Counted from the stretch's first letter, positions 5,605-57,461 are shown. The stretch is 64,000 nucleotides of DNA from Candidatus Bathyarchaeia archaeon (GCA_038870975.1 JAVZJD010000001.1:480001-544000); one strand, 5' to 3'. Program-made: numbers and translations. The notes: generated by a model not told the origin, from the letters alone.

Positions 5605-5609
5605 TAATT

Positions 5610-7133: not shown

Positions 7134-7150
7134 CCCTCCTTTTTTTCCTT
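7134..7150 (+). terminator. Oligo-T archaeal terminator after cren7
   Basis: CCCTCCTTTTTTTCCTT 25 nt after the stop codon. Confidence 0.5.
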
Positions 7151-7239
7151 CAATCCTCAGAGTTTAAGCATGTAAATTTTAGAGGACTTTCAATTGAGCA
7201 ACTTTTACAACTGTATGCTAAAAAAATAAAATAGATGGT

Positions 7240-9738: not shown

Positions 9739-9819
9739 GAGGCATCCAAGCTTATAGAAGCAGGCTTCGAGTATGTAACGACCTTCAACAATACCATTCT
9801 CTTCAGGAAGAGGAAGTAA
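9739..9819 (+). pseudogene. C-terminal relic of tyrosine recombinase/integrase
   Basis: Reads EASKLIEAGFEYVTTFNNTILFRKRK*, matching the relic tails at 19.5 and 26.8 kb. Confidence 0.7.
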
Positions 9820-9821
9820 TC

Positions 9822-11444
9822 CTAAGGAGTAAAAGGTAATCCTAATTTTCTACTTAAGCATGCCTTTATAAACCCATAATATGGGGGTGATGGCTTTCCA
9901 GGTCTACTTTTGAATTCTGGATGGAATTGTGTACCCATGTAGAAGTACCTATCTGGAAGTTCGAAGATTTCAACCCGTGAGCCATCTATTGAGAAACCTG
10001 AGAAAACCATTCCATGTTTTTGCAGAATATCCCAATATTTTACATTTACCTCCCAACGGTGTCTATGCCTCTCCATTATAATATTCTTACATCCATAGAG
10101 TTTATAGGCAATAGTTCCAGGTACAAGCTCCACTGGTTGCGCTCCAAGCCTCATAGTCCCTCCGAGTTGTTTAACTTCTTTCTGCTCAACCATGAGGTCT
10201 ATGACTGGATGAGAAGTATTGGGGTTATTTTCAGTACTATTTGCATCTTTAAGATTACATACATACCTTGCGAAAGCCACAATAGCCATTTGAAAGCCGA
10301 AGCATATACCTAGTAATGGTATGTCCATTCTCCTCGCATAATCTGCGGCTAGAATCTTCCCCTCCGTCCCCCTGGCGCCGAAACCAGGAGGCACTATAAT
10401 ACCATCATAGTTTAAAAGCTTCTCAAGGTTTTCTTCATTCTCAAATTCTTCAGCTTCTATCCAGTCTATTTTAGCTTTAGCATTACAGTAGGCGGCTGCG
10501 TGTTTAATGGCTTCATTAATACTTACGTAGGCATCTGATAGTGCGGCATACTTACCCACCATTGCGATTTTAATCTCGCGATCTGCTGTAAGAAATGCAT
10601 CTACTATCTGCTTCCATTCAGACCAATTTGGTTTAACTGGGTTCAAGCCCAGTCTTTTAACCACGTATTCACCCATCCCCTGTTCGTCTAATATGAGGGG
10701 GGCTTGGTATACACATTGAAGCGTGTAAGAGCAGAAAACAGCTTCCCTAGGTATTGTACCGAATAACGCTATTTTAGCCTTCGTCTCCTCTCCGATATTC
10801 CTCACACACCTAGCCACTATTATATCAGGTTGAATACCTATCCGTCTAAGCTCGTTAACGCTATGTTGAAGCGGCTTAGTCTTTTCTTCCCCAGTCGTAT
10901 CTAAAACAGGTACTAGAGCTACGTGAACAAACATTGTATTCTCAAAACCCTTTTCAAGTCTTATCTGCCGTATCGCCTCTAGGTATGGTAGTCCTTCAAT
11001 ATCTCCCACTGTACCTCCAACCTCCGTTAGAAGGACATCTATCGGCTCTTTCTCAGCAACCATGTAGATTCGACGTTTAATCTCATCTGTTATATGAGGC
11101 ACTATTTGAACACATTTACCCAAATAGTCGCCTCTCCTCTCCCTCTCTATGACAGCCCAGTATACCTGGCCAGTCGTTATATTGTGGTCCTTAGTCAAAT
11201 TTATGTCTAGAAATCTCTCATAGTGGCCAATATCGAGGTCTATTTCACCTCCATCCTCTGTAACGAATATCTCTCCATGCTGGTAAGGGTTCATAGTTCC
11301 ACAGTCTACGTTCAAGTATGGATCTATTTTTATCACAGAAACCCTATATCCGCGGACTTGGAGGATTTTACCTATTGAAGCAGTAACTACACCCTTACCT
11401 ACACTCGATAAAACTCCTCCAGTTATGAATATGAATTTAACCAA
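9822..11444 (-). CDS. pyrG: CTP synthase
   Basis: KFIFITGGVLSSVGKG, GICFG glutaminase Cys, TQFHPEF. Confidence 0.98.
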   Translation of the reverse strand: MVKFIFITGGVLSSVGKGVVTASIGKILQVRGYRVSVIKIDPYLNVDCGTMNPYQHGEIFVTEDGGEIDLDIGHYERFLDINLTKDHNITTGQVYWAVIERERRGDYLGKCVQIVPHITDEIKRRIYMVAEKEPIDVLLTEVGGTVGDIEGLPYLEAIRQIRLEKGFENTMFVHVALVPVLDTTGEEKTKPLQHSVNELRRIGIQPDIIVARCVRNIGEETKAKIALFGTIPREAVFCSYTLQCVYQAPLILDEQGMGEYVVKRLGLNPVKPNWSEWKQIVDAFLTADREIKIAMVGKYAALSDAYVSINEAIKHAAAYCNAKAKIDWIEAEEFENEENLEKLLNYDGIIVPPGFGARGTEGKILAADYARRMDIPLLGICFGFQMAIVAFARYVCNLKDANSTENNPNTSHPVIDLMVEQKEVKQLGGTMRLGAQPVELVPGTIAYKLYGCKNIIMERHRHRWEVNVKYWDILQKHGMVFSGFSIDGSRVEIFELPDRYFYMGTQFHPEFKSRPGKPSPPYYGFIKACLSRKLGLPFTP

Positions 11445-11874
11445 TAGAAACCCCCTTTAAACAGAGCACCTTAGAGATTTCTTACGAGTAAATCCCTGCG
11501 AAACCCTCTTATTTCTTTTATTGTCATTTATCGTCATATATGCGAGCCTCTTTTAGGCCCTATAATCTTCGACCTTTCAAATAGGTTAAACCCAAGTTGC
11601 TGAACCAGAGCCGACCTTCGTTGTTGCATTGGTATACTAGCGGCTCAGCAATAGCGGTGTTTACTACGAGTTGGACAAGATGCTATTACGTGTGGTGGTT
11701 GCTCATACATTAAGACCTGCATTCAACTCTTATTAATGGTAAAGTCAGCCGGATATGATTTAACTTCTTTTGGCATGAAAATGTGGTTTTAAATTGAAAA
11801 CTAAGTCCTCAAACGAAAAGCTTTTCTTTAGAAAGACTTTAGTAGAATTGTCATTTAGTAGGGCGGTTATCTAA

Positions 11875-12573
<699 letters not shown>

Positions 12574-19858: not shown

Positions 19859-20206
19859 TTTCTCATGAGACTAGGGTTGGAAATTGCTTAAAAGTAAGGT
19901 TTTTTATCTTCGCTTAATTAATTCAGTCCTCTTACAACTCTATAATCTAAAAGCTCCTTCTAGACGTTGCGAGGAAAACTACTACCAACGGAGCGATGAA
20001 TGTTACTATATACTCAAATTTTGGAGACTATTTTTCTCTTCCATAAACCGTTGGAAGAAGCCATTTAAATAATATGTCGGCGGAAAACATTAATGAAAGT
20101 GAGGCCCTCTCAGCCCGTGAGTTGTTTTAACCTTCTTTAAGATGGGTGGTTTTTCGAAGGGGAAATGGTTGCAACCAACGCTTATGCCTGAGCCAAGCCC
20201 ATCTGC

Positions 20207-21013
20207 TCAGAGGAATGGTAGGGGTTTAACCGTCGGGGGGAGCTTACGCTTATGAGATGTGGATTCGTAGCGTCTCACGACATCGAGAACCACGCTCTCC
20301 GGAATTTCGAGCTTCCGAGCGACTTCAGACGGTTTTAGCTTATGTTCGAATAGACCTACTAGGATTCTATCCAAAACCTGGTAGTCTACGGGAAGTTCGT
20401 CTGTGGCCTTATGCCCAGCATAGAGTTGGGGGCTACTCGGCTTATAGGCTATACGCTCAGGTATTCCAAGCCACTTAGCTAAAGACCTAACTTGAGTCTT
20501 ATAAAGGTGGGCTATGGGTAGGAAGTCTGCTGCTCCATCACCATACTTAGTATAGTACCCGATTAAAACCTCGCTTTTATCGCTAGTTCCAGCAACTAGT
20601 AACCCGTAAAGGTTTGCATAATAGTAGAGGATCGACATTCTAACTCTGGCTCTGAGATTGGCCGTAGGCATTTTATAAGCTGGATCTGACGGCTCATACG
20701 GTAGTACTCTCAGGAGGGCTTCCACAACGCTATCTATAGGTATGACCTTGTAGTTTATACCAAGCCAGTCAGCGAGGGCTACAGCATCTTCAACGTCGGA
20801 TTTAGGGGTGAATGAAAGAGGCATCAATAAAGCTAAGACTCTATTAGAGCCTAAGGCTTTAACACATAGAGTTGCGGTCACACTACTATCAACACCACCG
20901 CTTAAACCTAAGACGACACCTCTAGCACTACCTACAACATCTTTTATGAAAGAACAGATTTCTTCAACTGCTTCAGCGAAGTCTATAATAGGCACTGTTA
21001 AAATATCGACCAA
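20207..21013 (-). CDS. nadE: NH3-dependent NAD+ synthetase
   Basis: GLSGGVDSS, NLRARVRM, GYYTKYGDG, LYKTQV. Confidence 0.96.
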   Translation of the reverse strand: MVDILTVPIIDFAEAVEEICSFIKDVVGSARGVVLGLSGGVDSSVTATLCVKALGSNRVLALLMPLSFTPKSDVEDAVALADWLGINYKVIPIDSVVEALLRVLPYEPSDPAYKMPTANLRARVRMSILYYYANLYGLLVAGTSDKSEVLIGYYTKYGDGAADFLPIAHLYKTQVRSLAKWLGIPERIAYKPSSPQLYAGHKATDELPVDYQVLDRILVGLFEHKLKPSEVARKLEIPESVVLDVVRRYESTSHKRKLPPTVKPLPFL

Positions 21014-21072
21014 TAAATCCCCTGGAATACCTCTGGAAAAAGTAGAATTTAAACCTAAACTTATAGAAAAAA

Positions 21073-21104
21073 GGCTACGTATAGGCTGCCTATTTCACGC
21101 GGCC
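21073..21104 (-). other. 3' arm of the 23S pre-rRNA processing stem (bulge-helix-bulge)
   Basis: Pairs with 24219-24250: GGCTACGTATAGGCTGTCTA-CACG-TAG-CGGTC / GGCCG-CGTG-AAA-TAGGCAGCCTATACGTAGCC, a canonical 3-4-3 BHB. Confidence 0.85.
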
Positions 21105-21120
21105 ACCAGATTCTCTTTCA

Positions 21121-24201
<3,081 letters not shown>

Positions 24202-24218
24202 CTACTCGAGAACCCAGC

Positions 24219-24250
24219 GACCGCTACGTGTAGACAGCCTATACGTAGCC
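24219..24250 (-). other. 5' arm of the 23S pre-rRNA processing stem (BHB)
   Basis: Reverse-complement match to 21073-21104. Confidence 0.85.
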
Positions 24251-24335
24251 TCATAGCGTTCAAGATAAATACGCTCAGCTCTTAGCCTAGAAACCGGGTT
24301 TCTAGGCTGCATTGGGGATTGGGGCTTGGGAAGAT

Positions 24336-25972
<1,637 letters not shown>

Positions 25973-26176
25973 CGGATCCGCAAGGCTTTGAACTTCCCAA
26001 GCCCCTTTTCAGATCCAACCTTATAGAGGTTGGACCCTCATGTTTATACCCACAACAGGAGGTCGGGTTTGTTTCATTCTCGGGTGGAGAACCCTTCATC
26101 GTCGGAGACCCGACGCCACCGCCGGGTGTTGTGGGTGGAGGGGGAAGCCTCCAAAAAGAAGAGGGGGGTTATTGAG

Positions 26177-29353: not shown

Positions 29354-29749
29354 TTGGTTTTGAGGAGAGAGGCGTTGCTCTGGATGAGGCAGGCTGAAAG
29401 CGATTTGAAGAAAGCCGAAAACGACCTTAAGACGGGTGATTGGGATTCTGCGGCTTTCTGGTCTCAACAAACGGCTGAAAAAGCTTTGAAGGCCATATTG
29501 ATAAACGCCGGTAAAGTGTATAGGGGGCATGACCTCCTGGGTATTGGAGAATCTTTAAAGTTAGAATTGGAGATCGACATAGACTCGATTCTCAAAGACC
29601 TCAGAGAACTCACCATCCACTATACGATTTCAAGATACCCCAACGCTGCCAACGCCTTACCTATGGAGCTTTACGACGAAGAGAAGGCCCGTGGGCTCGT
29701 CGAGATGGCTCGGAGGGTTTTAAAATGGTCAAAGCAGTATCTGCGTTGA
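29354..29749 (+). CDS. HEPN domain protein (HEPN-MNT toxin-antitoxin)
   Basis: WMRQAESDL, FWSQQTAEKALKA, GHDL, HYTISRYP. Confidence 0.92.
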   Translation: MVLRREALLWMRQAESDLKKAENDLKTGDWDSAAFWSQQTAEKALKAILINAGKVYRGHDLLGIGESLKLELEIDIDSILKDLRELTIHYTISRYPNAANALPMELYDEEKARGLVEMARRVLKWSKQYLR

Positions 29750-30069
29750 AAAGTCAAGAGAGGGCATTTGAAATAATCGAGAGATTTATTGAAAATGCCA
29801 AGAGGCTATGTTCGATGAAGGGACTTCTACTCAGGGAGGCTTACCTCGTGGGCTCTAGAGCGCGGGGCGACTATTTAGAGGATAGCGATATAGACTTAGT
29901 TTTGATAGTCGAGGGCGTTGAAGGCATGGATCAACTGGAGAGGAGGAGAGCCTTCGTAGAAGCACTCGAGAAGGAGATGGAGACGTTCGTCTATACTCCG
30001 AAAGAATGGCATAGCGATGGCTCTCTCTGGATACGGGAGTTGAAGAAAGAGGCGGTGAAAATATCGTAG
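29725..30069 (+). CDS. Minimal nucleotidyltransferase (MNT antitoxin)
   Basis: YLVGSRARGDYLEDSDIDLV; overlaps the HEPN gene. Confidence 0.92.
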   Translation: MVKAVSALKSQERAFEIIERFIENAKRLCSMKGLLLREAYLVGSRARGDYLEDSDIDLVLIVEGVEGMDQLERRRAFVEALEKEMETFVYTPKEWHSDGSLWIRELKKEAVKIS

Positions 30070-31745: not shown

Positions 31746-32189
31746 GTGAACTGCTGGATCTTCACGGTTACTGAGGAAAACTGGGTCACGGTTAAAAACG
31801 TTAATGTTTTCGGAGTACCTGAGGCTAGGGGTCGTAAAGCTACCGAGCTAGTCAAGCCTGGAGATATGCTAGTCTTTTACGTGACTAAGAGGGACTCTAA
31901 AAGCCTAGGAGGAATGATAGTAGGCGTGTATAAAGCCGCTTCAACGTGGTTTAGAGAGGATAGACCGTTATGGCCTGATGAGGTTAGAGAGGGCGTAGTC
32001 AAATATCCATGGAGGATTAAGATAGAGCTCGTGAAGCTTGGAACAGCCTCCTACGAAAGGCTTGTTGACAGGTTGAGTTTCGTTAAGAATAAAGGTAGAG
32101 CTGGTGCGTACTTAATCGGCAGTCCAGCAAACTTTAAGAAGCCCATACCTGAGAAGGATTTCAAACTCATAGTTGAAAGCATGGAGTGA
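31746..32189 (+). CDS. EVE domain (PUA-like modified-base reader) protein
   Basis: CWIFTVTEENW, VKPGDMLVFYV, GMIVGVY, LWPDE, YPWR. GTG 31746 follows a GAGGTG SD; the ORF track starts at 31665. Confidence 0.88.
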   Translation: MNCWIFTVTEENWVTVKNVNVFGVPEARGRKATELVKPGDMLVFYVTKRDSKSLGGMIVGVYKAASTWFREDRPLWPDEVREGVVKYPWRIKIELVKLGTASYERLVDRLSFVKNKGRAGAYLIGSPANFKKPIPEKDFKLIVESME

Positions 32190-32195
32190 AGCCAT

Positions 32196-34385
32196 TTGGT
32201 CGATAAGCTCGTAGAAAAGTGGCTTCCCCTTTCTGAATTGAATCTACATGCTATGCTTGAAATGGCTTTTAGAGGAATGGCTGCAAAATATAAAAAAGAT
32301 TTTGTCAAAATTTATGGAATTGAGCCTAAAAAGATAGGTGTAGGGACGACGCTTTTAAGGAACATTCACCCATGGCCTGCAAGGAGACCTACAGCACCTG
32401 CACGTTTGTTAAACTTAGCTTCAATACTACCTTCAAACTTCAACCATGATTTTTTCAGAAAACTTTCAGGGTTGACTAACATCCCTAATTTAGCGAATCA
32501 AGATATTCTTCCAATACTTCTACATGCAAAACCAACTGAAACAGAGCTGACGGAAGTCTTAATTAAAGAGTATAATCGAAAGCCTGAAGACTTTGTTATT
32601 GTAGATCCTATGGCTGGTGGTGGCTCTATTCCTTTGGAGGCTTTGAGGCTTGGCTTTAGGACCGTGGCTATGGAGTATAACCCTGTCGCCTATCTTATCC
32701 TTAAGGCTACTTTAGAGTATCCCGCTAAGTATGGTGCAAAGCTTTACGAGGAGGTTAAGGCTGAGGCTGAGAGGCTTATATGCTGGGCTAGGGAGGAGCT
32801 TTGGAAGTACTATCCGGAGGACGCTATGAACTATATTATCGCCAGGGGGTATAGGTGTAGGTCTTGCGGGGGCTTAATTCCGATAATACATACTACCAGG
32901 CTCGGTAAGAATGGTCCTTACATAAGATTCTCCTTCGATAAAGATAGGAAGAGCTTCACGGTAGATGTTTCTAGCGTAGAAACAGAGTTTGACAGGCTTA
33001 GATGCCCATACTGTAAATCGCCAGTAGTTGAAGACATAGCCCTTCGAGAATGGGTTTCCAGACATAAGCGGCTTTTAAGAGTTGCGTTAAATGGAGACTT
33101 TAAATCCGCTAGAGAATCGGTTGAAGAACTCAATCAGACGCACATACTCCTGGTTAAGCAAACAGGGAGGGGATTTAAAGCGACTGGGAAGGGGGATGTG
33201 GAAAAGTTTACCGAAGCATACCTAGACCTCGTTAGGTTGAGTGGAGAGCTTAAAGAGTATATACCTTCAGACCCAATACCCAAAGCCGAAAATGAAGTAT
33301 TCAAACCAGCGACGGACCTGGGAATAGAATACTGGTATGAACTATTCAACCCAAGACAGCTCTTAATCCTGTCAGAGCTCATAAAATACGTCAGAACGAG
33401 AGCCGGAGAATTAATAGAGAAAAAGGGTGAATTTGGAGCTGCAACGACCCTTTATTTAACGTTCGGAGTAGATAAAATAAATAATTACAACACACTTGCA
33501 TCCACATGGCATGAGTCTCACTCTGTCATCAGAGATCTAACTGGTCATTATGCTTCAAAAAGAGAGGTCGATTTCGGCCTCGAATACTGTGAGGCTAAAC
33601 GTATAGACTTAGCTCTAGGCTGGGTTTTTGAGCCTGACGTTGAGGAGCCTACTAAGACTCATGGAGGTATTTGCCCTGTCGTTAAATACTTGTGTTCTTG
33701 GCTTGATGGTTTGGGCGATAGGGTTAGAGTGTTTATGGCTGATGCTATGGAACTCTCTAAGGTTTTAGGTGGGAAGAGCGCCGATGTTATTAACGTTGAT
33801 CCTCCGTACTTTGATCAGCATACTTACAGCGATATAAGCGAGTTCTTCTGGCAAATCCTGAGGATCACGTTGGCTCCTGCCATAGACGCAGGCTATCTAT
33901 TCAGTAGAGGAGAGCCTAGTAGAGCTGAGCTGTTCGTCTCAGGTTGGAGCTCCATACTGTCAACAGTCCCAAGAGATAATGAGCTCATAGAGAGGAAGAC
34001 CGTTAAAGTCTCCGCTAAAGGGAGGAGTACTCTGGAGATTTTAGAACGTATGAAAACACCGCATAGTAGAGATTGGTATGTGAAAAACATGTGGAAATTC
34101 TTCCGTGAGGTTTACAAGAGCCTTAAAGACGGCGGCGTCCTCATAGTATGGTTTACCCACAGCGACCCTGAGGCTTGGGAGGGCATTCTAAGCGCTCTAT
34201 ACGCTTCAGGCTTTATTATCACTAAGGTTTGGACCATAAGGACGGAGATGGCTGAGAGGCGTGTAGCATTAGCGGGGTCTGCATTCTTCTCAAGTTTAGC
34301 GATCGTAGCTAGGAAAGCGGGCGAGAGAGTGGTCGTCGGCACCAGAAGCATTAGAGATCTATCGATGAATGAAGATGTTAAATAA
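32196..34385 (+). CDS. DUF1156-type adenine-specific DNA methyltransferase with zinc ribbon, N-terminal 729 aa
   Basis: HPWPARRP, motif I DPMAGGGSIPLEA, CRSC/CPYC, LFNPRQL, motif IV VDPPY, LKDGGVLIVWFTH. Confidence 0.9.
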   Translation: MVDKLVEKWLPLSELNLHAMLEMAFRGMAAKYKKDFVKIYGIEPKKIGVGTTLLRNIHPWPARRPTAPARLLNLASILPSNFNHDFFRKLSGLTNIPNLANQDILPILLHAKPTETELTEVLIKEYNRKPEDFVIVDPMAGGGSIPLEALRLGFRTVAMEYNPVAYLILKATLEYPAKYGAKLYEEVKAEAERLICWAREELWKYYPEDAMNYIIARGYRCRSCGGLIPIIHTTRLGKNGPYIRFSFDKDRKSFTVDVSSVETEFDRLRCPYCKSPVVEDIALREWVSRHKRLLRVALNGDFKSARESVEELNQTHILLVKQTGRGFKATGKGDVEKFTEAYLDLVRLSGELKEYIPSDPIPKAENEVFKPATDLGIEYWYELFNPRQLLILSELIKYVRTRAGELIEKKGEFGAATTLYLTFGVDKINNYNTLASTWHESHSVIRDLTGHYASKREVDFGLEYCEAKRIDLALGWVFEPDVEEPTKTHGGICPVVKYLCSWLDGLGDRVRVFMADAMELSKVLGGKSADVINVDPPYFDQHTYSDISEFFWQILRITLAPAIDAGYLFSRGEPSRAELFVSGWSSILSTVPRDNELIERKTVKVSAKGRSTLEILERMKTPHSRDWYVKNMWKFFREVYKSLKDGGVLIVWFTHSDPEAWEGILSALYASGFIITKVWTIRTEMAERRVALAGSAFFSSLAIVARKAGERVVVGTRSIRDLSMNEDVK

Positions 34386-34391
34386 GCTATT

Positions 34392-35222
34392 ATGTCAAGC
34401 ACTGTGGACGCCCTTCAAAGCGCCATAGAGTCGGGGGCTTCGGAGCACGAGAAGTACATCATGGCTCTAGCTGGCGCGATAGCAGGCGCCACGCGAATAT
34501 GGAACCCATCGATTGAAGCAGTATCGGTTAAACGTGGCGTTAGACCTATAGATGAGTTTGCTGAAACGGAGAATTTAGATGTGGAGGACGTATACAGGTT
34601 TGTCGTGATGTTGCAATTTTTCAGGGAAAGTCTATATCCAGTGGCTTTATACCACGGTGTTTCAAGAATCCTAGAGGGCACTCTTAAAGAGGCTTTTACG
34701 AAGGCTGGCGTTGAAAAAACCTTGGCTGAAAACATGGTTAACGACATACTCCTAGTGGATAATGACTCCAAAGCCTACCTACTCCTATGGATGTCTACAA
34801 GATTCTCCGAGGAATCAACCGTTGAATATGATTTTGGCGAGAAGATCTGTAAGGTTATTGGCACGAGCCTCGACAGACTTAAAAACTTAGGGCTATTGGA
34901 GACTAAAGGAGGAACTACGTGTAAAATAATCTACGGTAAAGAGGCGGCAGATCTTATCAAGCGTAGGGTTGAAATTCTAGATAAAACCGTTTCAGGCATG
35001 GCTTTAAGACTCACGAAAATTCTAGCTGATACCCCGGCTGTCGAAGAGACTGGTAGAGCTGCGGAGCGAGTAAAAACATTATTTCCATTCAGTAGGCAGG
35101 TTGTGGCTGTTGCACTATTCCTACTGCTCACCGCCAGGGAGGATGAGTTGGAGTCGTTCGGCATTACGAGGCTAAACAAGCCTTTCATAGAAAACGTGCT
35201 TAAACTCCTGTATGGGAGGTGA
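34392..35222 (+). CDS. C-terminal part of the same methyltransferase, in frame after a single TAA
   Basis: GTT AAA TAA GCT ATT ATG: same frame as 32196-34385, no SD; helical C-terminal region as expected for DUF1156 methylases. Confidence 0.7.
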   Translation: MSSTVDALQSAIESGASEHEKYIMALAGAIAGATRIWNPSIEAVSVKRGVRPIDEFAETENLDVEDVYRFVVMLQFFRESLYPVALYHGVSRILEGTLKEAFTKAGVEKTLAENMVNDILLVDNDSKAYLLLWMSTRFSEESTVEYDFGEKICKVIGTSLDRLKNLGLLETKGGTTCKIIYGKEAADLIKRRVEILDKTVSGMALRLTKILADTPAVEETGRAAERVKTLFPFSRQVVAVALFLLLTAREDELESFGITRLNKPFIENVLKLLYGR

Positions 35223-38200
35223 TGTTCTACATGTATATTCCGAGGCTGAAAGACATAGTCGAGCCAACTCAGCTTGTAGAGGCGTATAGTAGACTTAGCC
35301 CAGGCGAATACGTAGGTAGACTTGCACCAAGCCTCGGCATGATAATTGAACACGAGCTATTCGATTCTCGAGTCGTAGTCAGTGATGAATTTTTAGATAC
35401 CGTTACATTTCTATCGATAACTCATCTAGACCCGATGCTTGATGCTTTGAAAATGGTCAACGGAGAGCTTAAAGTCGTTCGAGAAGCCCCAGTTGCTTTA
35501 TCTTTAACGCAAGAGATGGGCTTTGGAAAGACGCACTTCCTCACATTGCTATGGCATCTTTACGCTCAAACATATCGGTGGGATGTCGATGATGTCAGCG
35601 AAGTTATATATCCCAATGTCCTCTGGAGAACCAACTACGATAGAAAAGTAGCTGAAAGGACGTTGGTATTCCCAATAGACATGCTGAGATATCCTAAAGA
35701 CCTCAAGCCTTACGATGCAATATTCGAGACGGCGGCCAGAATATTAGAGCGTAAATCCAAAACGCATGGAATCGAAACCCTAGACCCAGGTTTTCTGAGA
35801 GGCCTTAGTAAGCTTAGACCGATAGAAGCTGTCAAAACGCTCATTTCAAGTCTTAGGGAGGCGATGCCGATATTGGTCGTAGTGGATGAACTTTATGGAG
35901 GAGTCCTCAATATAATTGAGGGAGGCTCTACCGAGAGGATTAAAAGTTTAATGGACCTTATATCGTTTCTTAAGGAGCTTCTAGAATCGTCTAGAGGAAT
36001 GGTGCCACTAGTCTTCATATATGCATCTGCCCAACAGGATGTGGAAAGATGGTCTAAGGCGTCGAAATACCTCATTCAGTTGGAAACTGATAGAATCATA
36101 CCGCTCTTAGTAGATGCCATCGCTGAGTTGAATGATAGGGTTGGAAGACTTAAACCATCCACTCTGAAGCCATTAGAAATTGAAGACGTCTTAAACATAC
36201 TTGCTTTAAGGCTGTTACGATTTAAAGCAAAAAGACAGGATGTTGTGCAAATCCTTCAAAAATACATAGAGAAGGAGTTTGCGGGTTTAATCGGAAAAGA
36301 TGAAGTCCTCAATTTCACGAAGAGGCTCGATAAATTTTACCCGTTCTCGCCGAGCTATGAGGTTCTTCTACTGAAGTTCATACATCCTACGTTTGGAGCA
36401 GACCTTCCAAAGTCACAGCACATAAGGGACCTTCTGAAGGTCACGGCGTCGTTGATAACTAGGCTCATGGCTGCTAAGTGGTCTGAATGTACATTTATAA
36501 GCATAGCCCACTTAGCGTCTGAGGACTTCGGTTACGTTATGAATGAGCGTGTCGCAAGAGAGTGGATGAGGATCTACGATTCATGTGAGAGCATCATCCA
36601 GAAAGTTGGAGATGAAGACATCAGAGAGCTTATGCTAGCCATGTTATCAACGGTTTACGCCAAGTCTGTAACTGAAAACGTAGTTAAACTGCTGGATATG
36701 CTGAGAGCCCCAGAGGTACGGTCTAGAGTTGAGAGGGCTGAGGTAGAGCTTAGAGCCGCTACAAAGCTCGATATGGCTACAACGCTCATAGGTGCTGTAG
36801 CAGAGGACCGCTTCAAGAAGTTTAATGAAGCCTTCGAACAATTTAAGAAATTGCCATACTTGAACAGCTTTGAATACGGCGGTTTAGAATACTACATAAT
36901 CACTCTTCTTCCAAGCCCATCTGAATTGATAGATCAGATGACTGAAGAGGAACGTAAGAAGGCTGGCGTCGATAAGAGTGATTATAAGACCATGCTTGAA
37001 TACTTTAAAGACCATCTGGTCAATCAGTACCCGCTCACAGGCTTCTTTCAAAGTAAATCTGGTAGAGTAGCTCCTCCAAAACTCTACTTAATAGATTGGA
37101 CTAAACATATGGTCAGTTTTAAAGATAAGCCTGAGTTCATAGACTTCCTCGATAGGGATTCATTCACAATACTAACAGTATCGCCTTGGAGCATATTGGA
37201 GGCAAGTCTATTGGGAAAGCCCAAGGCAAATTACGTTGAGGAAGCTGAAGCAATTATACGAAAGTGTAGAAGCGAAATACCGTACGTAAACATGTTTGCC
37301 ATGGTAATTCCAGACGTCCTACCTGAACACCTCTCTAGGCTCTGTAGCCAGATAGCCTCCGTCAACGCAGCCTCCACAGCCATAAACTACCTCAAAATCG
37401 GTGAACCAGAGCAGGCCAAACGTAGGAGACTTGATATGATAAAGAGGAGTCCAACGATACCTACGCTTAAGGATTACTTTAGAAGCGAGCAGGAGTTTGA
37501 GGAGGTGCTCTTAGAGATAATGGAGCATATGCATAGGAAGATCGAAAGCTATGCAGCTAGCTTGGCTTCTTCAGCCATAAGCAATTACACGGCAGACCTC
37601 ATAAACCTCTTCAAAACAGTCGTCTATTACGACCCTACAACGGACTCCATAACACACGGAGATTTAAGAGTAACACCAGAGAGGACTGCAAACGAGTTTA
37701 AAGATATTTACGGCGAACTCCCAGCGTGGATTTTGAACGCCGTAAGCGGAAAATGCAATATACGGAAGACTCCAGACATAAAAGCCAGTCTCATAGAGTA
37801 TATAAAGAAGTATGCGGAAAAGCATAAATCTGTTCTCCTGGCAGATAGGAGGCTTGAAGTAGACTCCACGTACATAGTCGAATCTGTAGTGAAAGGATGG
37901 CCTGAAATACCGATAAAACCAGTATCTAAATCAGCTGTTGAAAGCGCTGTGAAAATACTAAGCGGTACATATTCCCTAATAGACCCTGAGATAAATGAGA
38001 TAAAGGTATCTATAGAGGACGCGAAGATTATGATAGAGCGTGTAAGACTACCCCTCCCTCCACCCCCTGAGGAGTACAACATAGTTGAAGTGCATGGAAT
38101 TAACAACGTCATTATAGTGGTAGCATATTTCGATAAGTTGAAACCCCATCTAAGTAATATTCAAGCTGTAGATTTCTCTCTAAACATTAGAGGGGGAAGC

Positions 38201-38401
38201 GTTAACTTGTCGAAGCTCCCCCTAGAAGTGGTTGAGGCACTTAACATCAAGAATCTACTGGAAAAGTTTAGAAGCAATGTGACAAACGTCTCTCTCACAA
38301 TGTATTTTGAGGAAAAGATGAAGAGAGAGAAAATGCTTGAACAATTTAGAAAGATAGGCGTAGATGAGAATATGATCAAGCTGAAGAAGACTGGTGGATA
38401 A
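35219..38401 (+). CDS. Large DUF499/BrxC-like P-loop ATPase (1060 aa)
   Basis: Walker A QEMGFGKTH, Walker B LVVVDEL, FYPFSP, HIRDLLK; start overlaps the upstream stop (GTGA). Confidence 0.8.
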   Translation: MMFYMYIPRLKDIVEPTQLVEAYSRLSPGEYVGRLAPSLGMIIEHELFDSRVVVSDEFLDTVTFLSITHLDPMLDALKMVNGELKVVREAPVALSLTQEMGFGKTHFLTLLWHLYAQTYRWDVDDVSEVIYPNVLWRTNYDRKVAERTLVFPIDMLRYPKDLKPYDAIFETAARILERKSKTHGIETLDPGFLRGLSKLRPIEAVKTLISSLREAMPILVVVDELYGGVLNIIEGGSTERIKSLMDLISFLKELLESSRGMVPLVFIYASAQQDVERWSKASKYLIQLETDRIIPLLVDAIAELNDRVGRLKPSTLKPLEIEDVLNILALRLLRFKAKRQDVVQILQKYIEKEFAGLIGKDEVLNFTKRLDKFYPFSPSYEVLLLKFIHPTFGADLPKSQHIRDLLKVTASLITRLMAAKWSECTFISIAHLASEDFGYVMNERVAREWMRIYDSCESIIQKVGDEDIRELMLAMLSTVYAKSVTENVVKLLDMLRAPEVRSRVERAEVELRAATKLDMATTLIGAVAEDRFKKFNEAFEQFKKLPYLNSFEYGGLEYYIITLLPSPSELIDQMTEEERKKAGVDKSDYKTMLEYFKDHLVNQYPLTGFFQSKSGRVAPPKLYLIDWTKHMVSFKDKPEFIDFLDRDSFTILTVSPWSILEASLLGKPKANYVEEAEAIIRKCRSEIPYVNMFAMVIPDVLPEHLSRLCSQIASVNAASTAINYLKIGEPEQAKRRRLDMIKRSPTIPTLKDYFRSEQEFEEVLLEIMEHMHRKIESYAASLASSAISNYTADLINLFKTVVYYDPTTDSITHGDLRVTPERTANEFKDIYGELPAWILNAVSGKCNIRKTPDIKASLIEYIKKYAEKHKSVLLADRRLEVDSTYIVESVVKGWPEIPIKPVSKSAVESAVKILSGTYSLIDPEINEIKVSIEDAKIMIERVRLPLPPPPEEYNIVEVHGINNVIIVVAYFDKLKPHLSNIQAVDFSLNIRGGSVNLSKLPLEVVEALNIKNLLEKFRSNVTNVSLTMYFEEKMKREKMLEQFRKIGVDENMIKLKKTGG

Positions 38402-39221
38402 GTTGAGGGTTGAATGGTCCTCATCTCTAAGCCTGCTCAGAGACTACGTATCCAAGCTCTCCAAATCGGTGGGACTATCTCTGAAAGATGGATTGTTGGA
38501 GAGGTATGTTCATATTCTCTTTACATGTTTATGCGCAGCCTACGGTAGACCAGAGTTCTGCGAACTGGTTTCCCACAACCCACTACTGGAGGAGCCGGCT
38601 AAAGTAGGCAAAGCCTTTATAGAGTCCATGAATAGACTATCCAAGGAGGGTTTAACTGTCTCTGGTGGAAGCATCCTCTACGCAACTGAAAAAGTTGAAG
38701 TTGCTCTTAAAACCCGTGAGAAAAAACCCTACGTGGTTTTATGCGACTGCCTATCCCTTCCAGAATACGTGTATATTTACGATAGATTCTCCAGAAGGAT
38801 TCATCTAGACGGACTACTATATTCAATAAACCCGGGCGGAGTGACTAGGACATATGAATACTTAACTTCCATAATCCTCAAGTCTCAAGAGGAGAAAATG
38901 ACGATGTCCACATTAGGAGAAGCGCTTAAGATTAAATTTAGAGCGGTAGGGTCTACTGTTGTGAGAGGTATGGATGAACTGGTCCATAGAACTCAGTGTG
39001 AGAAGTTTCCGAGTGCATCCGACATGGCTGTCAGCCTCTATAGAGCTGTTGAGGATATAGCGTTTAAAATATCTATTCTATCTGAGGATTACACTGTCCT
39101 AGTATTGTCCGACCACGGATACGATGTTTCCCTTGAACCAGATGGGTACTCTCTATTCCACATGTTCACGGGGGAGGGGGCTTGTTTAAGCCTATTCTCC
39201 GCAGCATTAATAGTGGGGTGA
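38394..39221 (+). CDS. Compact PglZ-like alkaline-phosphatase-superfamily protein
   Basis: VVLCDCLSLPEY, NPGGVT, DELVH, VLVLSDHGY, LFH...LSLFS metal-ligand motifs. Confidence 0.75.
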   Translation: MDKLRVEWSSSLSLLRDYVSKLSKSVGLSLKDGLLERYVHILFTCLCAAYGRPEFCELVSHNPLLEEPAKVGKAFIESMNRLSKEGLTVSGGSILYATEKVEVALKTREKKPYVVLCDCLSLPEYVYIYDRFSRRIHLDGLLYSINPGGVTRTYEYLTSIILKSQEEKMTMSTLGEALKIKFRAVGSTVVRGMDELVHRTQCEKFPSASDMAVSLYRAVEDIAFKISILSEDYTVLVLSDHGYDVSLEPDGYSLFHMFTGEGACLSLFSAALIVG

Positions 39222-39227
39222 GCTTTC

Positions 39228-39710
39228 GTGATCAAGACCGAGGGCGAATACTGGCTGATATATAAGCACTCGAAAAACCCCAAAAGATGTACGATGGGAG
39301 TAAAGTTTCCAAGCATAGAATCACGCTACTACGTTACGCTGGGAGGTAAAAGGGCATCCGAACTCTACAACTACATAATCTTAACTCTAGACGCCAATAG
39401 AATCGAATACTTGTTTGAAAAGAAAAACGGAAGAAGCTTTGTAAAACTTCCATGGAGTACTGGACTAGCAATAACCGTGTTTTTACTAGCCATATATGCA
39501 AGACGGAAACCTCTGATCTACGCTCATATACTAGATAGAATGCTCCAAGGTAGAATGCCGCTAATGCGCTATTTAACAAGCATGGTTGAACTAGCATTAG
39601 AGCTAACAGAGTATTTTAAAGATCGGCAGCAAAACAGATTAGTCTCAGACGCCAGCGCAAAAACAGTCTCAAAAGCCATGGGAGAGTTAATAAAGGCTGT
39701 CAAACTATGA
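39228..39710 (+). CDS. Small basic hypothetical protein, last gene of the defence operon
   Basis: 160-aa ORF starting 6 nt after the PglZ-like stop, preceded by a GGGGTGA SD. Confidence 0.7.
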   Translation: MIKTEGEYWLIYKHSKNPKRCTMGVKFPSIESRYYVTLGGKRASELYNYIILTLDANRIEYLFEKKNGRSFVKLPWSTGLAITVFLLAIYARRKPLIYAHILDRMLQGRMPLMRYLTSMVELALELTEYFKDRQQNRLVSDASAKTVSKAMGELIKAVKL

Positions 39711-39789
39711 GGACTTTTACGGAAAAAGTCTTAATAGTCTATTTAAAATTTTCTACTTCTACTATAGACTAGGCATCTGATCATAATGT

Positions 39790-40302
39790 CTACCACTCTG
39801 GAATGTACTTATAGTACTGTATCATTCGTACCGCTGGGTTCGTAATGCCTCTAGTTCCAACGACCTCCTGCACCTCTTTAAGAACTTCTTCAAAACCTAT
39901 AACGGTTATACCCGTCTTCTTCAGCTCTTCAAACAGCTCTCTTCTAGCTTTTCTATCGGGCTTCACCCTTCCATAACTACCGTATATCATAACCCTTCTA
40001 TGGTGTTCTCCAAGCCTTTTAACAACCTCCTCCACGATGTACGGGTCTTCAAACTTCCTCACTATGTTCTTGACAATGAGTGAGATTGGATAGCCTATGG
40101 CTCTACTATAAGCAGCAACGTGTACTTCTATCTCGCCTAATCTTTCATCTGGCTTACTGAGAGTAATGGCTAAGAAGTCTATCTCCCTATTCTTCTTGAC
40201 TCTCAAGTTTCTCATGATAAAGTAGCCTTTAGAAAACAGCCAATACTCTACAACGTCCTCACCAGCTTCACTCAAACCATACTCCTCCCAGAAAATGTAC
40301 AA
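39790..40302 (-). CDS. PD-(D/E)xK restriction-endonuclease-fold protein
   Basis: EAGEDVVEYWL..KGY....N...REIDFLAI...EIEVH pattern (Hjc/YraN/Mrr-like); the likely true start is TTG ~40275. Confidence 0.7.
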   Translation of the reverse strand: MYIFWEEYGLSEAGEDVVEYWLFSKGYFIMRNLRVKKNREIDFLAITLSKPDERLGEIEVHVAAYSRAIGYPISLIVKNIVRKFEDPYIVEEVVKRLGEHHRRVMIYGSYGRVKPDRKARRELFEELKKTGITVIGFEEVLKEVQEVVGTRGITNPAVRMIQYYKYIPEW

Positions 40303-40879: not shown

Positions 40880-42931
40880 TTAGAATGGTATGTAAAATCT
40901 CACCATTCCAGCGATGCAACCGATTAGCGTCACAATAGCTATGCCTGCTGCGAAGCCTCCTACGGCTGGTGGAATCCACTCCTCGTATAGCCTGCTTCCG
41001 CCTATTCTGATAACTATCGTTTTAACTATCCAGGCTGCTAGGAAGACCGACCAAAGGCAGTTCCAGAATCCTCCGAAGTTTGTAGCTATTAGAAAGCCTA
41101 CTGGCTCGAAGGGAAACCATAGGAATCTAGCGTGCAGAATTGCTAAGGCTGTCACGATTATGAAGCCAGCAGCTCCATATGTTAGGAATGTTTCATTTGA
41201 TGGAAGAGAATATACATAGTTTAGACAAGTCTCACCTCTATCCATACCTAGATACCACGTTGGCAAACCAGCCCTCGTACCGTAAAGGTTTGCAAGCCAA
41301 ACCCTCGACGCGAATATAGTGGGCACTGATATTACCATGGCCATAGCACTGACCCAGAAAGTGTTCTTCAAACTTGTCTTCGTAAGGTCTGCCATCTTCA
41401 AGTTTAAGGCTGTTGTAAAGAAGCCGTTTCCAAATCCAAACGAAACGACGTTTGAACCCCAGAATGCCCACTGGTGGCTCATGACGAAGCTTGCGGTAGG
41501 CTCTGGTGGACGGGTGGGCCACCTAATCCTCATCGTCCAAACAGGCCAGATGCGGCAGTCAGATGCAATAAATGCGCCGTGACCGAACAATACGAGCATA
41601 GCAAGCCACGTAGTGAAGCAGTTGAACGCTATCAGTAGTAGTGAGGCCAAGAAGTCTATGTAGAGGAGTTGACAACTTATGATGCACGCTATGATCGATG
41701 CTACTAACATAATGTACATGGACCTATAGCTCATCGCCTCATTCTTTTCCCAATCTGGTGCAACCCTACCGAAGGCGGCTTTGATTGTAGTCAAAAGATA
41801 CCCTCTATTTAAGTAGATCTGCATAACGGCTAGAGCTAAGAAACCCCCAACCATGCTGAATAGATTCCATCTAAATGGAGCATCCCATCCAGGCGTGTTC
41901 TGATAGCAACACATCCTTGCCCAACTCGGCATGCCCAGTACTCCCGTGTAATAGCCCATCATGTATGCCGCCTGGTCAAGTATCCACATCACGAAGGTCC
42001 AGAACCACACATTGAAGGATACGCTGAGTGGAACCAGTAGAGCCATAGCGAAAGCTATCATATCTTTGCTATAGCCATAGTAGCCTACAACCGACTGAGC
42101 GATTATGTCCGTCTCAGTTACATGAACAGCACCGGATGGACAAGCTTCACGCCACGCGTAGATGTCTGGGAACCATGGGAACGTCCTAGCCATGAAGATC
42201 GGTATCCCGTAGGCGAAGGCCAGTACGAAGCCTATCCAGAACGGCCCAGCAAACCTCTTAGCCCTACCCTCTCCACCAGATTGAACCATCCTTACGATCT
42301 CATAACCAGCAAGCGCCAGTGGAAATGGAACCCTTTCTACGTCGAACCATGCATGTCTGAAGATCAGTACGACTGAAGATGTGAAGAAGAAGAAAGTAAT
42401 ATATTGCAGGCTCATGACGAAGACGATGGGACCCCAGTGAGCCCAATTCGTAGCAACGCCCCCTCGAACCATAGCTTGAACTTCCTCTAATGGAGGCATC
42501 CACCAAATGCCTCTGAAAATACCACGGGGATCCGTCTGTTGGAAGAAGGCCGGTCTGATAGACCAGTCTGTCGCAAGATACGCGAAGCCAAGCGTACAAG
42601 ATGCAATATTCCCGACGGACCATAAGTATGTGAGCAGACTATTGCTAACCTTAAACCACTTTCGAAGCGAATACATCAGAGTCAGTAGAAGGTATGACCA
42701 CACCACGTAACCCGTAACCCTTGAAATCATGCCCAGATTGTAGCCACATTGCCAAGCACCAGGCAACATGCCCAGCAAGCAGAAGGACAGCATCGTCAGA
42801 AATGATGTGATGAAGGATAATATAGCCAAGGGGATCCACGGAACCTTTTCTTCTAGTTTCTCACTGCCCGTTTTCCCACCAAATTCAGGTCTATGCTGAA
42901 TATATATATGTTTTTCGCCCTCCTTTTTCAC
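40880..42931 (-). CDS. OPT-like (DUF6785/DUF6784-type) membrane transporter, paralog 2
   Basis: DVERVPFP, PWFPDIYAWR, HARFLWFPFEPVGF, GGSRLYEE, RFYIPF. Confidence 0.75.
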   Translation of the reverse strand: MKKEGEKHIYIQHRPEFGGKTGSEKLEEKVPWIPLAILSFITSFLTMLSFCLLGMLPGAWQCGYNLGMISRVTGYVVWSYLLLTLMYSLRKWFKVSNSLLTYLWSVGNIASCTLGFAYLATDWSIRPAFFQQTDPRGIFRGIWWMPPLEEVQAMVRGGVATNWAHWGPIVFVMSLQYITFFFFTSSVVLIFRHAWFDVERVPFPLALAGYEIVRMVQSGGEGRAKRFAGPFWIGFVLAFAYGIPIFMARTFPWFPDIYAWREACPSGAVHVTETDIIAQSVVGYYGYSKDMIAFAMALLVPLSVSFNVWFWTFVMWILDQAAYMMGYYTGVLGMPSWARMCCYQNTPGWDAPFRWNLFSMVGGFLALAVMQIYLNRGYLLTTIKAAFGRVAPDWEKNEAMSYRSMYIMLVASIIACIISCQLLYIDFLASLLLIAFNCFTTWLAMLVLFGHGAFIASDCRIWPVWTMRIRWPTRPPEPTASFVMSHQWAFWGSNVVSFGFGNGFFTTALNLKMADLTKTSLKNTFWVSAMAMVISVPTIFASRVWLANLYGTRAGLPTWYLGMDRGETCLNYVYSLPSNETFLTYGAAGFIIVTALAILHARFLWFPFEPVGFLIATNFGGFWNCLWSVFLAAWIVKTIVIRIGGSRLYEEWIPPAVGGFAAGIAIVTLIGCIAGMVRFYIPF

Positions 42932-55463: not shown

Positions 55464-57461
55464 ATGGCAGAACCTTTCGAGAAAGTCGAGAAAGTTTCAC
55501 TGCCCATTGTCGTCGTTTTCAGCGTTCTTCTAGCTCTTATAAGCATGGTCTGGATAAGTCTACTTCCATCTGGACTTTGGCACTTCTACAACCTAGGTAT
55601 TGTGGCGTGTCCTCTACAGCTTACTTCAGCACCATTCATACTGATCCTCTTAACCGCAGCTATTAGTAAAGCTGGATTTTTGAAGAAGCTTAAGACGGCT
55701 ACATTAGTCTACCTTTACATGGCGGCTGTCTCAGTAGCATGGTATACGGATTACGCAGCCACGTCTGAGTGGTATGCAGGCGTATGGCACAATAGGAGGT
55801 TCTACCCAGATATTACAACGCAATACGTACCATGGTATTTGGCTCCTCCAACAGAATACGTTGAGAGGCTTATAACCGGTGGAGCTGTAGACTGGGGTGT
55901 ATGGACTACTCCAATCCTCTATTGGACTATGCTACACATAGTATTCTACCTCTTCATGGCCTCAATAATAACCATATTCAGGAGAAACTGGATAGATGTT
56001 GAAAAAGTCCCATTTACACATGTATTAGCTTCACATGAAATCTTAAAGTACACGTTTAAAGAAGAAGCTACGACTTCTAAACTCATTAAACCATTTATCA
56101 TAGGCGTAGTATTAGGCTTAATTGTTCAATTGCCAATTTACATGGCCGTCATGTTCCCATGGTTCCCAGACGTCTACGGATGGCGTATAAATACCTGCGG
56201 ACACGGAGGCTACTGGATACCCGCGGGTTCACCTTTAGCCTCTATCGTCGGTTTAAGCATGATTCAGAAGCACCCAGTATTTATAGCCATAGGATATTTA
56301 GTACCTCTATCAACGCTTTTCAGCACATGGTTTTTCCACCTGGTCTATATAATAGCTGTTCAAGTGGCGTTTGTCCTAGGATACTACACGGGTCTTGATG
56401 CCATTGGAGGATGTGGTAGAGCTTGGTGTGGGACTGTTACGCCAAACTTCGGAGAGCCTTTTAAGTTTATGGCGCTTAGCTACGTCGGCGGATCTACCGC
56501 TTTAACGTTGATCTACCTAGTGTTAAATTGGAGATATGTTAGAGATACTTTGCTTGCAGCAATGGGGAAGGGGCCTCTGAAAGATTACGAGAAGGAAGAG
56601 GCTTTAACCTATAGGCAGGCGTATACTCTCCTACTGATATCCATAGTTTTGATTATGATTGTTCTATCCGGATGGGGTATGGGACCTGCAACATCGATAA
56701 TTCTGATATTCACCGTATTCATCTTCTGGATCGCTAATACCCGTATCTGGGGTTTAGCTGGCTGTACTCTTCAAGGCGCAGAACATGGCAATGCCTTCTA
56801 CAGACTGTTCGTATGGCCGCAGGCACCTCAACCTCCTACGATGGAGTTTATGGCTTCAGCTTACCTTTCAGAGTGGCTGGTTGACGTGCCAAAGTCTTTT
56901 GGAGGCGCGGCACTATCGTTTGCAGCAGGTTATAAAATGGCGAGTTTAACTGGTGTGAAAACTAGGGACGCATTTAAGACGGTGTTGGTCGCTGGGATCT
57001 TAGGCTATCCTATTGTCATGGCAACCTACGTCTTAATGTGTCACACGTTTGGCCTAGCCAAACTCCCAGTATGGGCTGAGAGTACGTATGACTCTCTCAT
57101 AGATAGATGCGGCAATCCTGACAATTGGAACGTTAGACCCGGCACAGAACCTTGGTGGCCCAATTTCCTAGCAGGCTTCATCATAGTGGCTCTGCTAAGC
57201 TGGCTTCACGCGAGGTTTATCTGGTTTCCACTTGAACCCATAGGCTTTATACTCGGCACAAGTTACATGTCCATACTTTGGGGCGTATGGTTCCCATTCC
57301 TTATCGCTTGGATTCTTAAGACGATAACTTTGAAAGTAGGAGGGACTAGAGGCTATGAAGAGTTTGGAATTCCAGTGGCTGTCGGGCTGATAGCGGGCTA
57401 CATGATCGCAGTACTTATCGGAGGCCTTGTAGGAATAGTAAGATTCTTCGTACCGTTTTAA
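55464..57461 (+). CDS. OPT-like (DUF6785/DUF6784-type) membrane transporter, paralog 3
   Basis: DVEKVPF, PWFPDVYGWR, HARFIWFPLEPIGF, GGTRGYEE, RFFVPF. Confidence 0.75.
   Translation: MAEPFEKVEKVSLPIVVVFSVLLALISMVWISLLPSGLWHFYNLGIVACPLQLTSAPFILILLTAAISKAGFLKKLKTATLVYLYMAAVSVAWYTDYAATSEWYAGVWHNRRFYPDITTQYVPWYLAPPTEYVERLITGGAVDWGVWTTPILYWTMLHIVFYLFMASIITIFRRNWIDVEKVPFTHVLASHEILKYTFKEEATTSKLIKPFIIGVVLGLIVQLPIYMAVMFPWFPDVYGWRINTCGHGGYWIPAGSPLASIVGLSMIQKHPVFIAIGYLVPLSTLFSTWFFHLVYIIAVQVAFVLGYYTGLDAIGGCGRAWCGTVTPNFGEPFKFMALSYVGGSTALTLIYLVLNWRYVRDTLLAAMGKGPLKDYEKEEALTYRQAYTLLLISIVLIMIVLSGWGMGPATSIILIFTVFIFWIANTRIWGLAGCTLQGAEHGNAFYRLFVWPQAPQPPTMEFMASAYLSEWLVDVPKSFGGAALSFAAGYKMASLTGVKTRDAFKTVLVAGILGYPIVMATYVLMCHTFGLAKLPVWAESTYDSLIDRCGNPDNWNVRPGTEPWWPNFLAGFIIVALLSWLHARFIWFPLEPIGFILGTSYMSILWGVWFPFLIAWILKTITLKVGGTRGYEEFGIPVAVGLIAGYMIAVLIGGLVGIVRFFVPF

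Follow-up and report, generated by a model that had tools for sequence, protein, structure and literature searches.

The DUF499-centred BREX-related (BR) systems were defined in a computational description by Rakesh and Krishnan (NAR 2026; PMC12839542). In that description, Type-3 BR consists of a DUF499 ATPase, an N6-methylase, a BrxHII-like helicase and a stand-alone active PglZ, and an inactive-STAND protein is present in 82% of cases (PMC12839542). The paper counts 134 archaeal taxa, and neither Bathyarchaeia nor Thermoproteota was found to be named in its main text. Here we describe a related locus at positions 31746–40302 of a 64,000-nt stretch of DNA from Candidatus Bathyarchaeia archaeon (GCA_038870975.1 JAVZJD010000001.1:480001-544000), the whole of which is called the window. 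At its core are genes for a DNA methylase (M), a large ATPase (A), a PglZ-like enzyme (Z) and a small protein (S). M-A-Z-S is probably a mobile Thermoproteota cassette of the BREX/DUF499-centred BR defence group in which motor genes, helicase and BrxL included, are missing.

Relationship to described systems

Type-3 BR is the closest known system. In both, the N6-methylase has an N-terminus of the DUF1156 type and contains a nested Zn-finger insert, the AAA+ ATPase is DUF499/BrxC-like, PglZ stands alone as a single domain whose metal site is intact, and a gene for a small conserved protein adjoins that of PglZ. On the other hand, the window operon and genome lack a BrxHII-type Swi2/Snf2 helicase, and the window ATPase and PglZ have diverged too far to be recognised by the Pfam DUF499 and PglZ models. 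The small protein, of 160 amino acids (aa), is a candidate for the inactive STAND (BrxB/BrxF-like) component by its position. The first-pass annotation of the window had regarded a DUF499/DUF1156 core with a stand-alone PglZ as a blend of two systems, but this combination was already published as Type-3 BR in January 2026 (PMC12839542). The motor-less clade, the BrxL-bearing sister form, the proteins invisible to current models and the unclassified 160-aa component go beyond the Type-3 BR description, and the BrxL-bearing form seems to fall outside what the text of PMC12839542 covers.

The Hma system of PADLOC, also known as Type-1/Type-2 BR, is composed of a DUF1156 methylase, a DUF499 ATPase and an SNF2 helicase-nuclease, with or without DUF3780, which marks Type-2. 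The window locus resembles it in the methylase family (HmaB 3e-32, DUF1156_MTase 1e-20) and in the N-terminal half of the ATPase, whereas it has no helicase-nuclease, carries PglZ in the nuclease's place, and encodes a 160-aa protein unrelated to the DUF3780-position proteins. With BREX (Types 1, 3 and 4) it shares the logic of methylase, BrxC-like ATPase and PglZ, together with a weak PglXI match, the sole PADLOC match to a BREX component, and its sister operons hold a Type-4-like short BrxL. However, the window PglZ of 275 aa is devoid of the N-terminal iSwi2/Snf2, helix-turn-helix (HTH) and beta-sandwich (C-terminal) domains, BrxA, BrxB, BrxL and BrxHII were not found, and the methylase is of the DUF1156 type, not PglX. 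The set that marks BREX Type 1 (long multi-domain PglZ, PglX, BrxA, BrxB and BrxL) is therefore not that of the window cassette. The PglZ domain of PorX, a type 9 secretion regulator of Porphyromonas gingivalis (PDB 7pv7 and others), is similar in fold, whereas PorX differs in its receiver domain, its regulatory role, its sequence (approximately 11% identity) and its entirely different genomic context. No PADLOC model would call the locus as a complete system.

A conserved and mobile four-gene unit

The plus strand between 31.7 and 39.7 kb contains six co-directional open reading frames (ORFs), whose junctions are 6-nt gaps or 4- or 8-nt overlaps, and a convergent ORF ends 79 nt downstream of this run. 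The features of the locus are as follows.

31746–32189, plus strand: EVE gene, 147 aa from the GTG at 31746; the longest ORF runs from 31665
32196–34385, plus strand: N-terminal part of the methylase, 729 aa
34383–34385, plus strand: in-frame TAA within the methylase, which it splits
34392–35222, plus strand: C-terminal part of the methylase, 276 aa, in the same frame as 32196–34385
35219–38401, plus strand: BrxC/DUF499-like AAA+ ATPase, 1060 aa, a remote homologue
38394–39221, plus strand: PglZ-like stand-alone enzyme of the alkaline-phosphatase fold, 275 aa, presumed effector
39228–39710, plus strand: conserved small protein, 160 aa
39790–40302, minus strand: convergent ORF for a possible PD-(D/E)xK-like nuclease, 170 aa, a neighbour and not a conserved part

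Five co-directional units had been described previously. Their tight spacing was confirmed, but the count was not, since the TAA cuts the methylase and makes six ORFs; this split was omitted from the earlier gene list. The conserved unit consists of four genes (M-A-Z-S, 32196–39710), not six.

The M-A-Z-S order and its tight spacing were found in at least nine other loci, all from Thermoproteota, with protein identities of 19–92%. Full four-gene loci are L001, L003/4, L005/6, L007/L030, L009 and L029; L008 is cut at a contig end, and the more distant L044/45 has the same gene order. Because the four genes recur with the same order and spacing in these loci, the arrangement is not due to chance, and the predicted co-occurrence of the genes in other genomes holds for the four core genes. 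DNA-level similarity to L029 and to L030, which is from the same genus, is confined to window positions 32598–39693, a span that takes in the four genes but neither the EVE gene nor the 170-aa gene. In genome G105, the cassette and the orthologue of the URO-D-like gene located upstream of the cassette in the window are on different contigs, and the URO-D gene is the only one that the same-genus genomes have in common with the window flanks. Among 401 sampled genomes of the phylum, 4 had a match to the full-length ATPase. Since the shared DNA stops at the four genes, the context differs in G105 and the ATPase is so sparsely distributed, the sequence data point to a patchily distributed cassette that is horizontally mobile in Thermoproteota.

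Core proteins of the cassette

No matches were obtained in Pfam, PADLOC or NCBIfam for the ATPase and for the 275-aa, 160-aa and 170-aa proteins. The motifs quoted in the first-pass annotation for the methylase (DPMAGGG and DPPY), the ATPase (GFGKTH and VVDE) and the 275-aa protein (D-C-L-S and SDHG) were all found, and they are invariant among homologues.

The predicted structure of the 275-aa protein is a single domain with a helical linker (predicted local distance difference test score of 92, predicted template modelling score of 0.92). In the ESM Atlas fold search, all named neighbours were PF08665 PglZ clusters with template modelling scores of 0.58–0.59. Among solved structures, the PglZ domain of PorX is nearest to it in fold, and BREX PglZ domains are also among the closest. 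Seven residues are invariant across 34 sequences (D118, T151, D194, H198, D240, H241 and H256), as are the motifs CDCLS and SDHGYD among homologues. The D-T-D..H-DH-H order of these residues is that of the two-metal nucleotide-pyrophosphatase site. The structural model and the complete, invariant catalytic set agree with the PglZ fold proposed earlier and support the 275-aa protein as a PglZ-fold enzyme with the full set of metal-site residues.

The sequence of this protein has diverged beyond the reach of the family model. With the gathering score as threshold, the window protein gave no match to Pfam PF08665, and a six-frame scan of the window genome with PF08665 gave no match. Among the 34 PglZ-like members, Pfam detected weak PglZ matches in 4 (best E 0.0033) and weak Phosphodiest matches in 5. 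An exhaustive profile search of 1.84 billion representatives retrieved only 95 PglZ-like relatives, nearly all of them stand-alone proteins of 220–290 aa. A Pfam PglZ scan of the 401 sampled phylum genomes gave just weak matches around the DHG motif of other proteins. Three small PglZ matches (L063–L065) were examined as further candidates and rejected, no methylase or ATPase being nearby in any of them. L064 (3639–4343, minus strand) and L065 (573–1265, plus strand) are stand-alone PglZ-like ORFs of approximately 230 aa that the A2 profile and Pfam PglZ both match weakly, and they possibly belong to a different small PglZ-based module.

In the ATPase, Walker A (GFGKTH, residues 101–106) and Walker B (VVDE, residues 221–224) are both invariant, and the best solved structural match is BrxC. 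The Pfam DUF499 model matched none of 18 ATPase relatives, even at E 5. In hhalign, the ATPase was aligned with four archaeal DUF499-type ATPases (including two Pfam-confirmed DUF499 proteins, L028 (E = 0) and L036 (2e-194)) with a probability of 99.2% and E 2.5e-19 over 466 columns, and a YPF(S/H)P motif is common to the two groups. Because this profile-profile alignment lies in the N-terminal half, the term DUF499-like holds as remote homology of that half; the earlier assignment thus stands, on the fold and the hhalign result, as a remote DUF499/BrxC homologue. A C-terminal RRM-like domain has been described in DUF499 proteins (PMC12839542), and by our own reading the window ATPase may also fit this feature. 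The layout of Type-3 BR ATPases, namely an ORC/Cdc6-like core, winged HTH/alpha+beta domains and a C-terminal RRM-like domain, seems to be that of the window ATPase as well. The family has just 23 clusters among 5.8 billion proteins, and its named members are all from metagenome-assembled genomes (MAGs) of Thermoproteota. Sequence searches of the PDB with the methylase and ATPase profiles gave nothing useful.

The 160-aa gene follows the PglZ-like gene in every full locus. Its family comprises 108 clusters, none with a Pfam domain, and those with a named source are all archaeal. By hhalign (94%), the protein is homologous to its counterpart in L026, a locus with a helicase. On the other hand, PDB profile searches gave chance-level matches only, no recognisable P-loop remnant and no Pfam match were seen in the protein, and its ESM Atlas feature matches (up to 0.85) were uninformative. 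Comparison by hhalign of the 160-aa family with the small proteins in the DUF3780 position of L028, L027 and L036 gave probabilities below 1%. Pfam DUF7680 was weakly matched by 5 of 45 relatives; this identity was rejected, as the true DUF7680 genes after DUF499 in L066–L068 are unrelated by hhalign. Prediction of a complex between the PglZ-like and 160-aa proteins scored 0.00, which counts for neither side. In L066 (8767–12263), L067 (7083–10552) and L068 (6653–10119), a DUF499-like ATPase of approximately 990 aa is followed by a 165–169-aa ORF overlapping the DUF7680 match; upstream are a divergent methylase and a 1090-aa plus 180-aa gene pair, and this is another archaeal BR-type layout.

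The methylase matched MTase_II (6.6e-40) and weakly PglXI (6.9e-9) in PADLOC, in addition to HmaB and DUF1156_MTase, and DUF1156_antiphage (4.7e-31, far under the model cut-off) in NCBIfam; Pfam DUF1156 matches of its homologues were weak or faint. Motif I (DPMAGGGS), motif IV (DPPY) and a four-Cys ribbon (C221/C224/C270/C273) are invariant in the methylase alignment A4. Motif I, the nested insert with the four-Cys Zn ribbon and motif IV are all located in the N-terminal 729 aa. These matches and motifs support the original assignment, and the protein is a DUF1156-type N6-adenine DNA methylase.

The internal stop codon of the methylase

The 729-aa and 276-aa pieces are colinear from end to end with single proteins of 973–1013 aa elsewhere (A4), and the A4 profile matched the 276-aa part at 3e-130. 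The C-terminal helical region of BR methylases is described as a triad of HTH-like domains (PMC12839542), and the detached 276 aa appear to correspond to this region. The codon at the TAA site is CAA (Q) in L029, CGG (R) in L007 or GAC (D) in homologues; a single C-to-T change accounts for the TAA, since L029 has CAA at that codon. An alternative genetic code was rejected, because the TAA is a single difference from a relative, the other genes are read normally and TAA is a stop here. As the TAA splits the methylase into 729 and 276 aa, the activity of the cassette in the window genome is uncertain: the system would either use a two-piece methylase or be switched off.

The presence of TAA in place of a sense codon, and the location of the cassette in a variable island, would fit a decaying and non-functional remnant, in which the nonsense codon killed the methylase and the rest is drifting. 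We consider this unlikely, though worth serious attention, because all other ORFs are intact, free of frameshifts and 82–92% identical to those of relatives. Every catalytic motif of the methylase is upstream of the stop. In addition, an ATG occurs two codons past the TAA, where relatives have GTT or GTG, and speculatively it would permit separate translation of the C-terminal part. A toxic effector without its methylase is normally lost quickly, and the TAA may also be a sequencing error.

Absence of motor genes and related operons

No helicase ORF was found in the 31.7–40.3 kb region, and no BrxL was found in the window genome (92.9% complete). Comparison of this genome with the helicase of L026 gave just generic SF2-core matches, all at least 190 kb away. 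In the eight other four-gene loci for which the contig includes the upstream side, no helicase was found inside the operon. The earlier observation that the operon contains neither an SNF2 helicase nor BrxL was thus confirmed, and BrxL and a close helicase homologue are also absent genome-wide.

Relatives from the phylum showed three architectures, namely M-A-Z-S on its own, a five-gene form that includes BrxL, and L026 with its helicase. In the five-gene form (L023, L025, L046/47 and L049–51), a 470-aa BrxL is encoded between the ATPase and PglZ; it consists of BrxL_N and BrxL_ATPase (E about 1e-111 to 1e-114) and has no Lon domain. Profiles of all four window proteins found counterparts in the BrxL loci. 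L026 starts with an SF2 DEAD-type helicase and finishes with an EVE gene. Its methylase and PglZ-like protein matched the window profiles, and its ATPase gave a partial match (E 5e-10) in the whole-genome search and none in the local search.

In a maximum-likelihood tree of the ATPase rooted with DUF499, the window falls in a monophyletic clade of seven four-gene loci (Shimodaira–Hasegawa-like approximate likelihood-ratio support of 99), none of which has a motor gene in the operon. The sister clade contains the L026 helicase locus, the four-gene locus L044 and the BrxL loci. On the basis of this tree, the lack of a motor is an old and stable state in the clade of the window, whereas motors come and go in the sister clade.

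It is improbable that the locus is an ordinary member of Type-3 BR whose helicase is elsewhere or was missed, and hence no distinct variant. Four of the five published components do have counterparts in the window, PMC12839542 already counts 134 archaeal taxa, and helicase genes lie within 3 kb upstream of the cassette in L003, L005 and L007. However, these helicases are of differing families (SF1 AAA_11/12 in two loci and DEAD/Cas3-like_C SF2 in one) and are separated from the operon by genes on the opposite strand, and only the generic motor core is common to the L005 helicase and the helicase inside the L026 operon. In the window, L029, L044 and L009, the surroundings of the cassette contain no helicase, the generic SF2 matches of the window genome are remote from it, and the motor-less clade is monophyletic and deep.

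In L007, a DCD (EVE-like) gene and an SF1 AAA_11/AAA_12 helicase gene (1268–4182, plus strand) lie a few kb upstream of the cassette, as does a Zn-ribbon SF1 helicase gene in L003 (3275–5725, plus strand). These upstream genes may be separate defence genes of the same islands. In L049, L050 and L051, which are from Sulfolobales MAGs, the BrxL variant (approximately 270–12010) is flanked by two QueC paralogues, one on each side and on opposite strands; the sizes are 1020 aa for the methylase, 1092 aa for the ATPase, 470 aa for BrxL, 272 aa for the PglZ-like protein and 164 aa for the small protein. The QueC bracketing may stem from an insertion that duplicated its target, or it may point to a connection with 7-deazaguanine chemistry.

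The EVE gene and the convergent ORF

The EVE protein matched Pfam PF01878 (2.4e-10, 41 bits against a cut-off of 23, profile positions 1–144 of 145) and NCBIfam PRK00809 (1.9e-35). Because the Pfam match begins right there, the GTG at 31746 is the most likely start. The gene ends 6 nt ahead of the methylase. It is outside the DNA common to L029 and L030, and EVE is absent from seven of the nine other four-gene loci; in L005 there is just an EVE-like fragment upstream, and in L008 the upstream region is missing. On the other hand, an EVE gene (5e-34) closes the L026 operon, and in G009, a genome related to that of the window and without the cassette, an EVE protein of 72% identity starts the L036 operon (EVE, 194 aa, DUF1156, DUF499, 149 aa, SNF2). 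An association of EVE with DUF499 is also cited in PMC12839542 (ref. 110). EVE is thus a variable accessory of the methylase lineage and not a core component, because it is absent from most loci yet recurs beside related methylases. It may be a reader of modified bases.

L036 (G009:C83, 1–9139, minus strand) is a classical BR/Hma operon in a genome of the same family, with the SNF2 helicase cut by the contig end. Its members include EVE (151 aa), a 194-aa protein with a weak second EVE-like match, a DUF1156 methylase (993 aa) and DUF499 (1115 aa).

A homologue of the convergent 170-aa gene was found only in the nearest relative, L008. The protein had no sequence match in Pfam, PADLOC, NCBIfam or PDB, and its named feature neighbours in the ESM Atlas (Mrr_cat, NERD and PDDEXK_GAPS4) were weak, at 0.80–0.88. 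By our own reading, the sequence contains EIDF...EIEVH, with H where K is expected. Given these weak neighbours and no family match, the earlier PD-(D/E)xK call is a lead only.

The first-pass annotation had made EVE a part of the system and had proposed that EVE and the nuclease attack modified invader DNA. In the corresponding six-gene, dual-mode system, N6-methyladenine (m6A) would mark self, and EVE and the convergent nuclease would form a type-IV-like arm against modified DNA of invaders. The 6-nt spacing to the methylase, the EVE genes flanking related operons (G009/L036 and L026), the EVE-like fragment upstream in L005, the DCD gene upstream in L007 and the cited EVE–DUF499 association are compatible with this system. 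It is nevertheless very unlikely, since most four-gene loci lack EVE, as does the DNA shared with L030, no conserved nuclease is fused to the EVE protein or encoded next to it, and the 170-aa gene, for a putative nuclease, recurs in L008 only. Since both genes are outside the conserved and mobile unit, EVE is not retained as a part of the system, and the proposed attack has no comparative support.

Proposed mode of action

By analogy with BREX and BR, the DUF1156-type methylase of the motor-less M-A-Z-S cassette would mark a motif of host DNA with m6A, the nested Zn-ribbon insert setting the specificity. The BrxC/DUF499-like ATPase, of the ORC/Cdc6 type, would bind DNA, sense unmarked DNA and scaffold the complex. 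The mini-PglZ, as a two-metal phosphodiesterase with a Thr nucleophile, would nick or cut invader DNA as the effector. The 160-aa protein may be an adaptor or sensor, occupying the position of the BrxB-like inactive-STAND proteins of Type-3 BR. As there is no motor gene, restriction would proceed without helicase-driven unwinding, or the ATPase would supply that work.

Several points weigh against assigning the cassette to a motor-less defence system. Helicase genes occur 1–3 kb upstream of the four-gene loci L003, L005 and L007, outside the operon, and a helicase may therefore act in trans. The methylase of the window carries a premature TAA. By hhalign, no alignment with DUF499 was obtained for the C-terminal half of the ATPase. 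No link was found between the 160-aa protein and DUF3780-position or DUF7680 proteins. For this family and for Type-3 BR alike, we infer defence, m6A marking and the nuclease action of PglZ by comparison.

The PorX PglZ domain is a phosphodiesterase acting on cyclic and linear oligonucleotides (PMC12839542) and is the closest solved fold, but it is most improbable that M-A-Z-S serves epigenetic control or nucleotide signalling instead of immunity, its PglZ-like enzyme hydrolysing signal oligonucleotides like PorX, given the patchy and mobile distribution of the cassette, the linkage of the PglZ-like gene to those of a DNA methylase and a BrxC-like ATPase, the BrxL or helicase in sister operons, and the toxin-antitoxin modules and other defence-type genes nearby.

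We tentatively suggest, at somewhat less than even odds, that M-A-Z-S alone suffices for self/non-self discrimination and restriction, and that the helicase and BrxL are exchangeable extras, which the sister clade acquired or lost on several occasions. If so, such a self-sufficient motor-less system would be the minimal BREX-like machine in nature, and the BREX phage block and the role of PglZ as effector could be tested cleanly in it. The mechanism by which BREX blocks phages is still debated, and its large multi-domain proteins make dissection hard. A minimised relative with thermostable proteins, a 275-aa PglZ and no helicase, BrxL, BrxA or recognisable BrxB would allow a simpler test of the effector role of PglZ and of sensing by the ATPase. 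Such systems are under-counted in archaea, because Pfam, PADLOC and NCBIfam miss three of the four proteins.

Other features of the window

Upstream of the URO-D-like gene, at 29354–30069 on the plus strand, the window contains a toxin-antitoxin-type pair of HEPN (5.5e-30) and nucleotidyltransferase (2.5e-10) genes with a 25-nt overlap. A similar HEPN–nucleotidyltransferase pair follows the cassette in L001. Four paralogous DUF6785/DUF6784 membrane-protein genes are present in the window, at 7240–9225 (minus strand), 40880–42931 (minus strand), 55464–57461 (plus strand) and 60508–62565 (minus strand), and one of them is directly downstream of the cassette. The GC content of the 20000–26000 region is 51–59%, compared with approximately 42% elsewhere, which would fit the rRNA operon of a thermophile.

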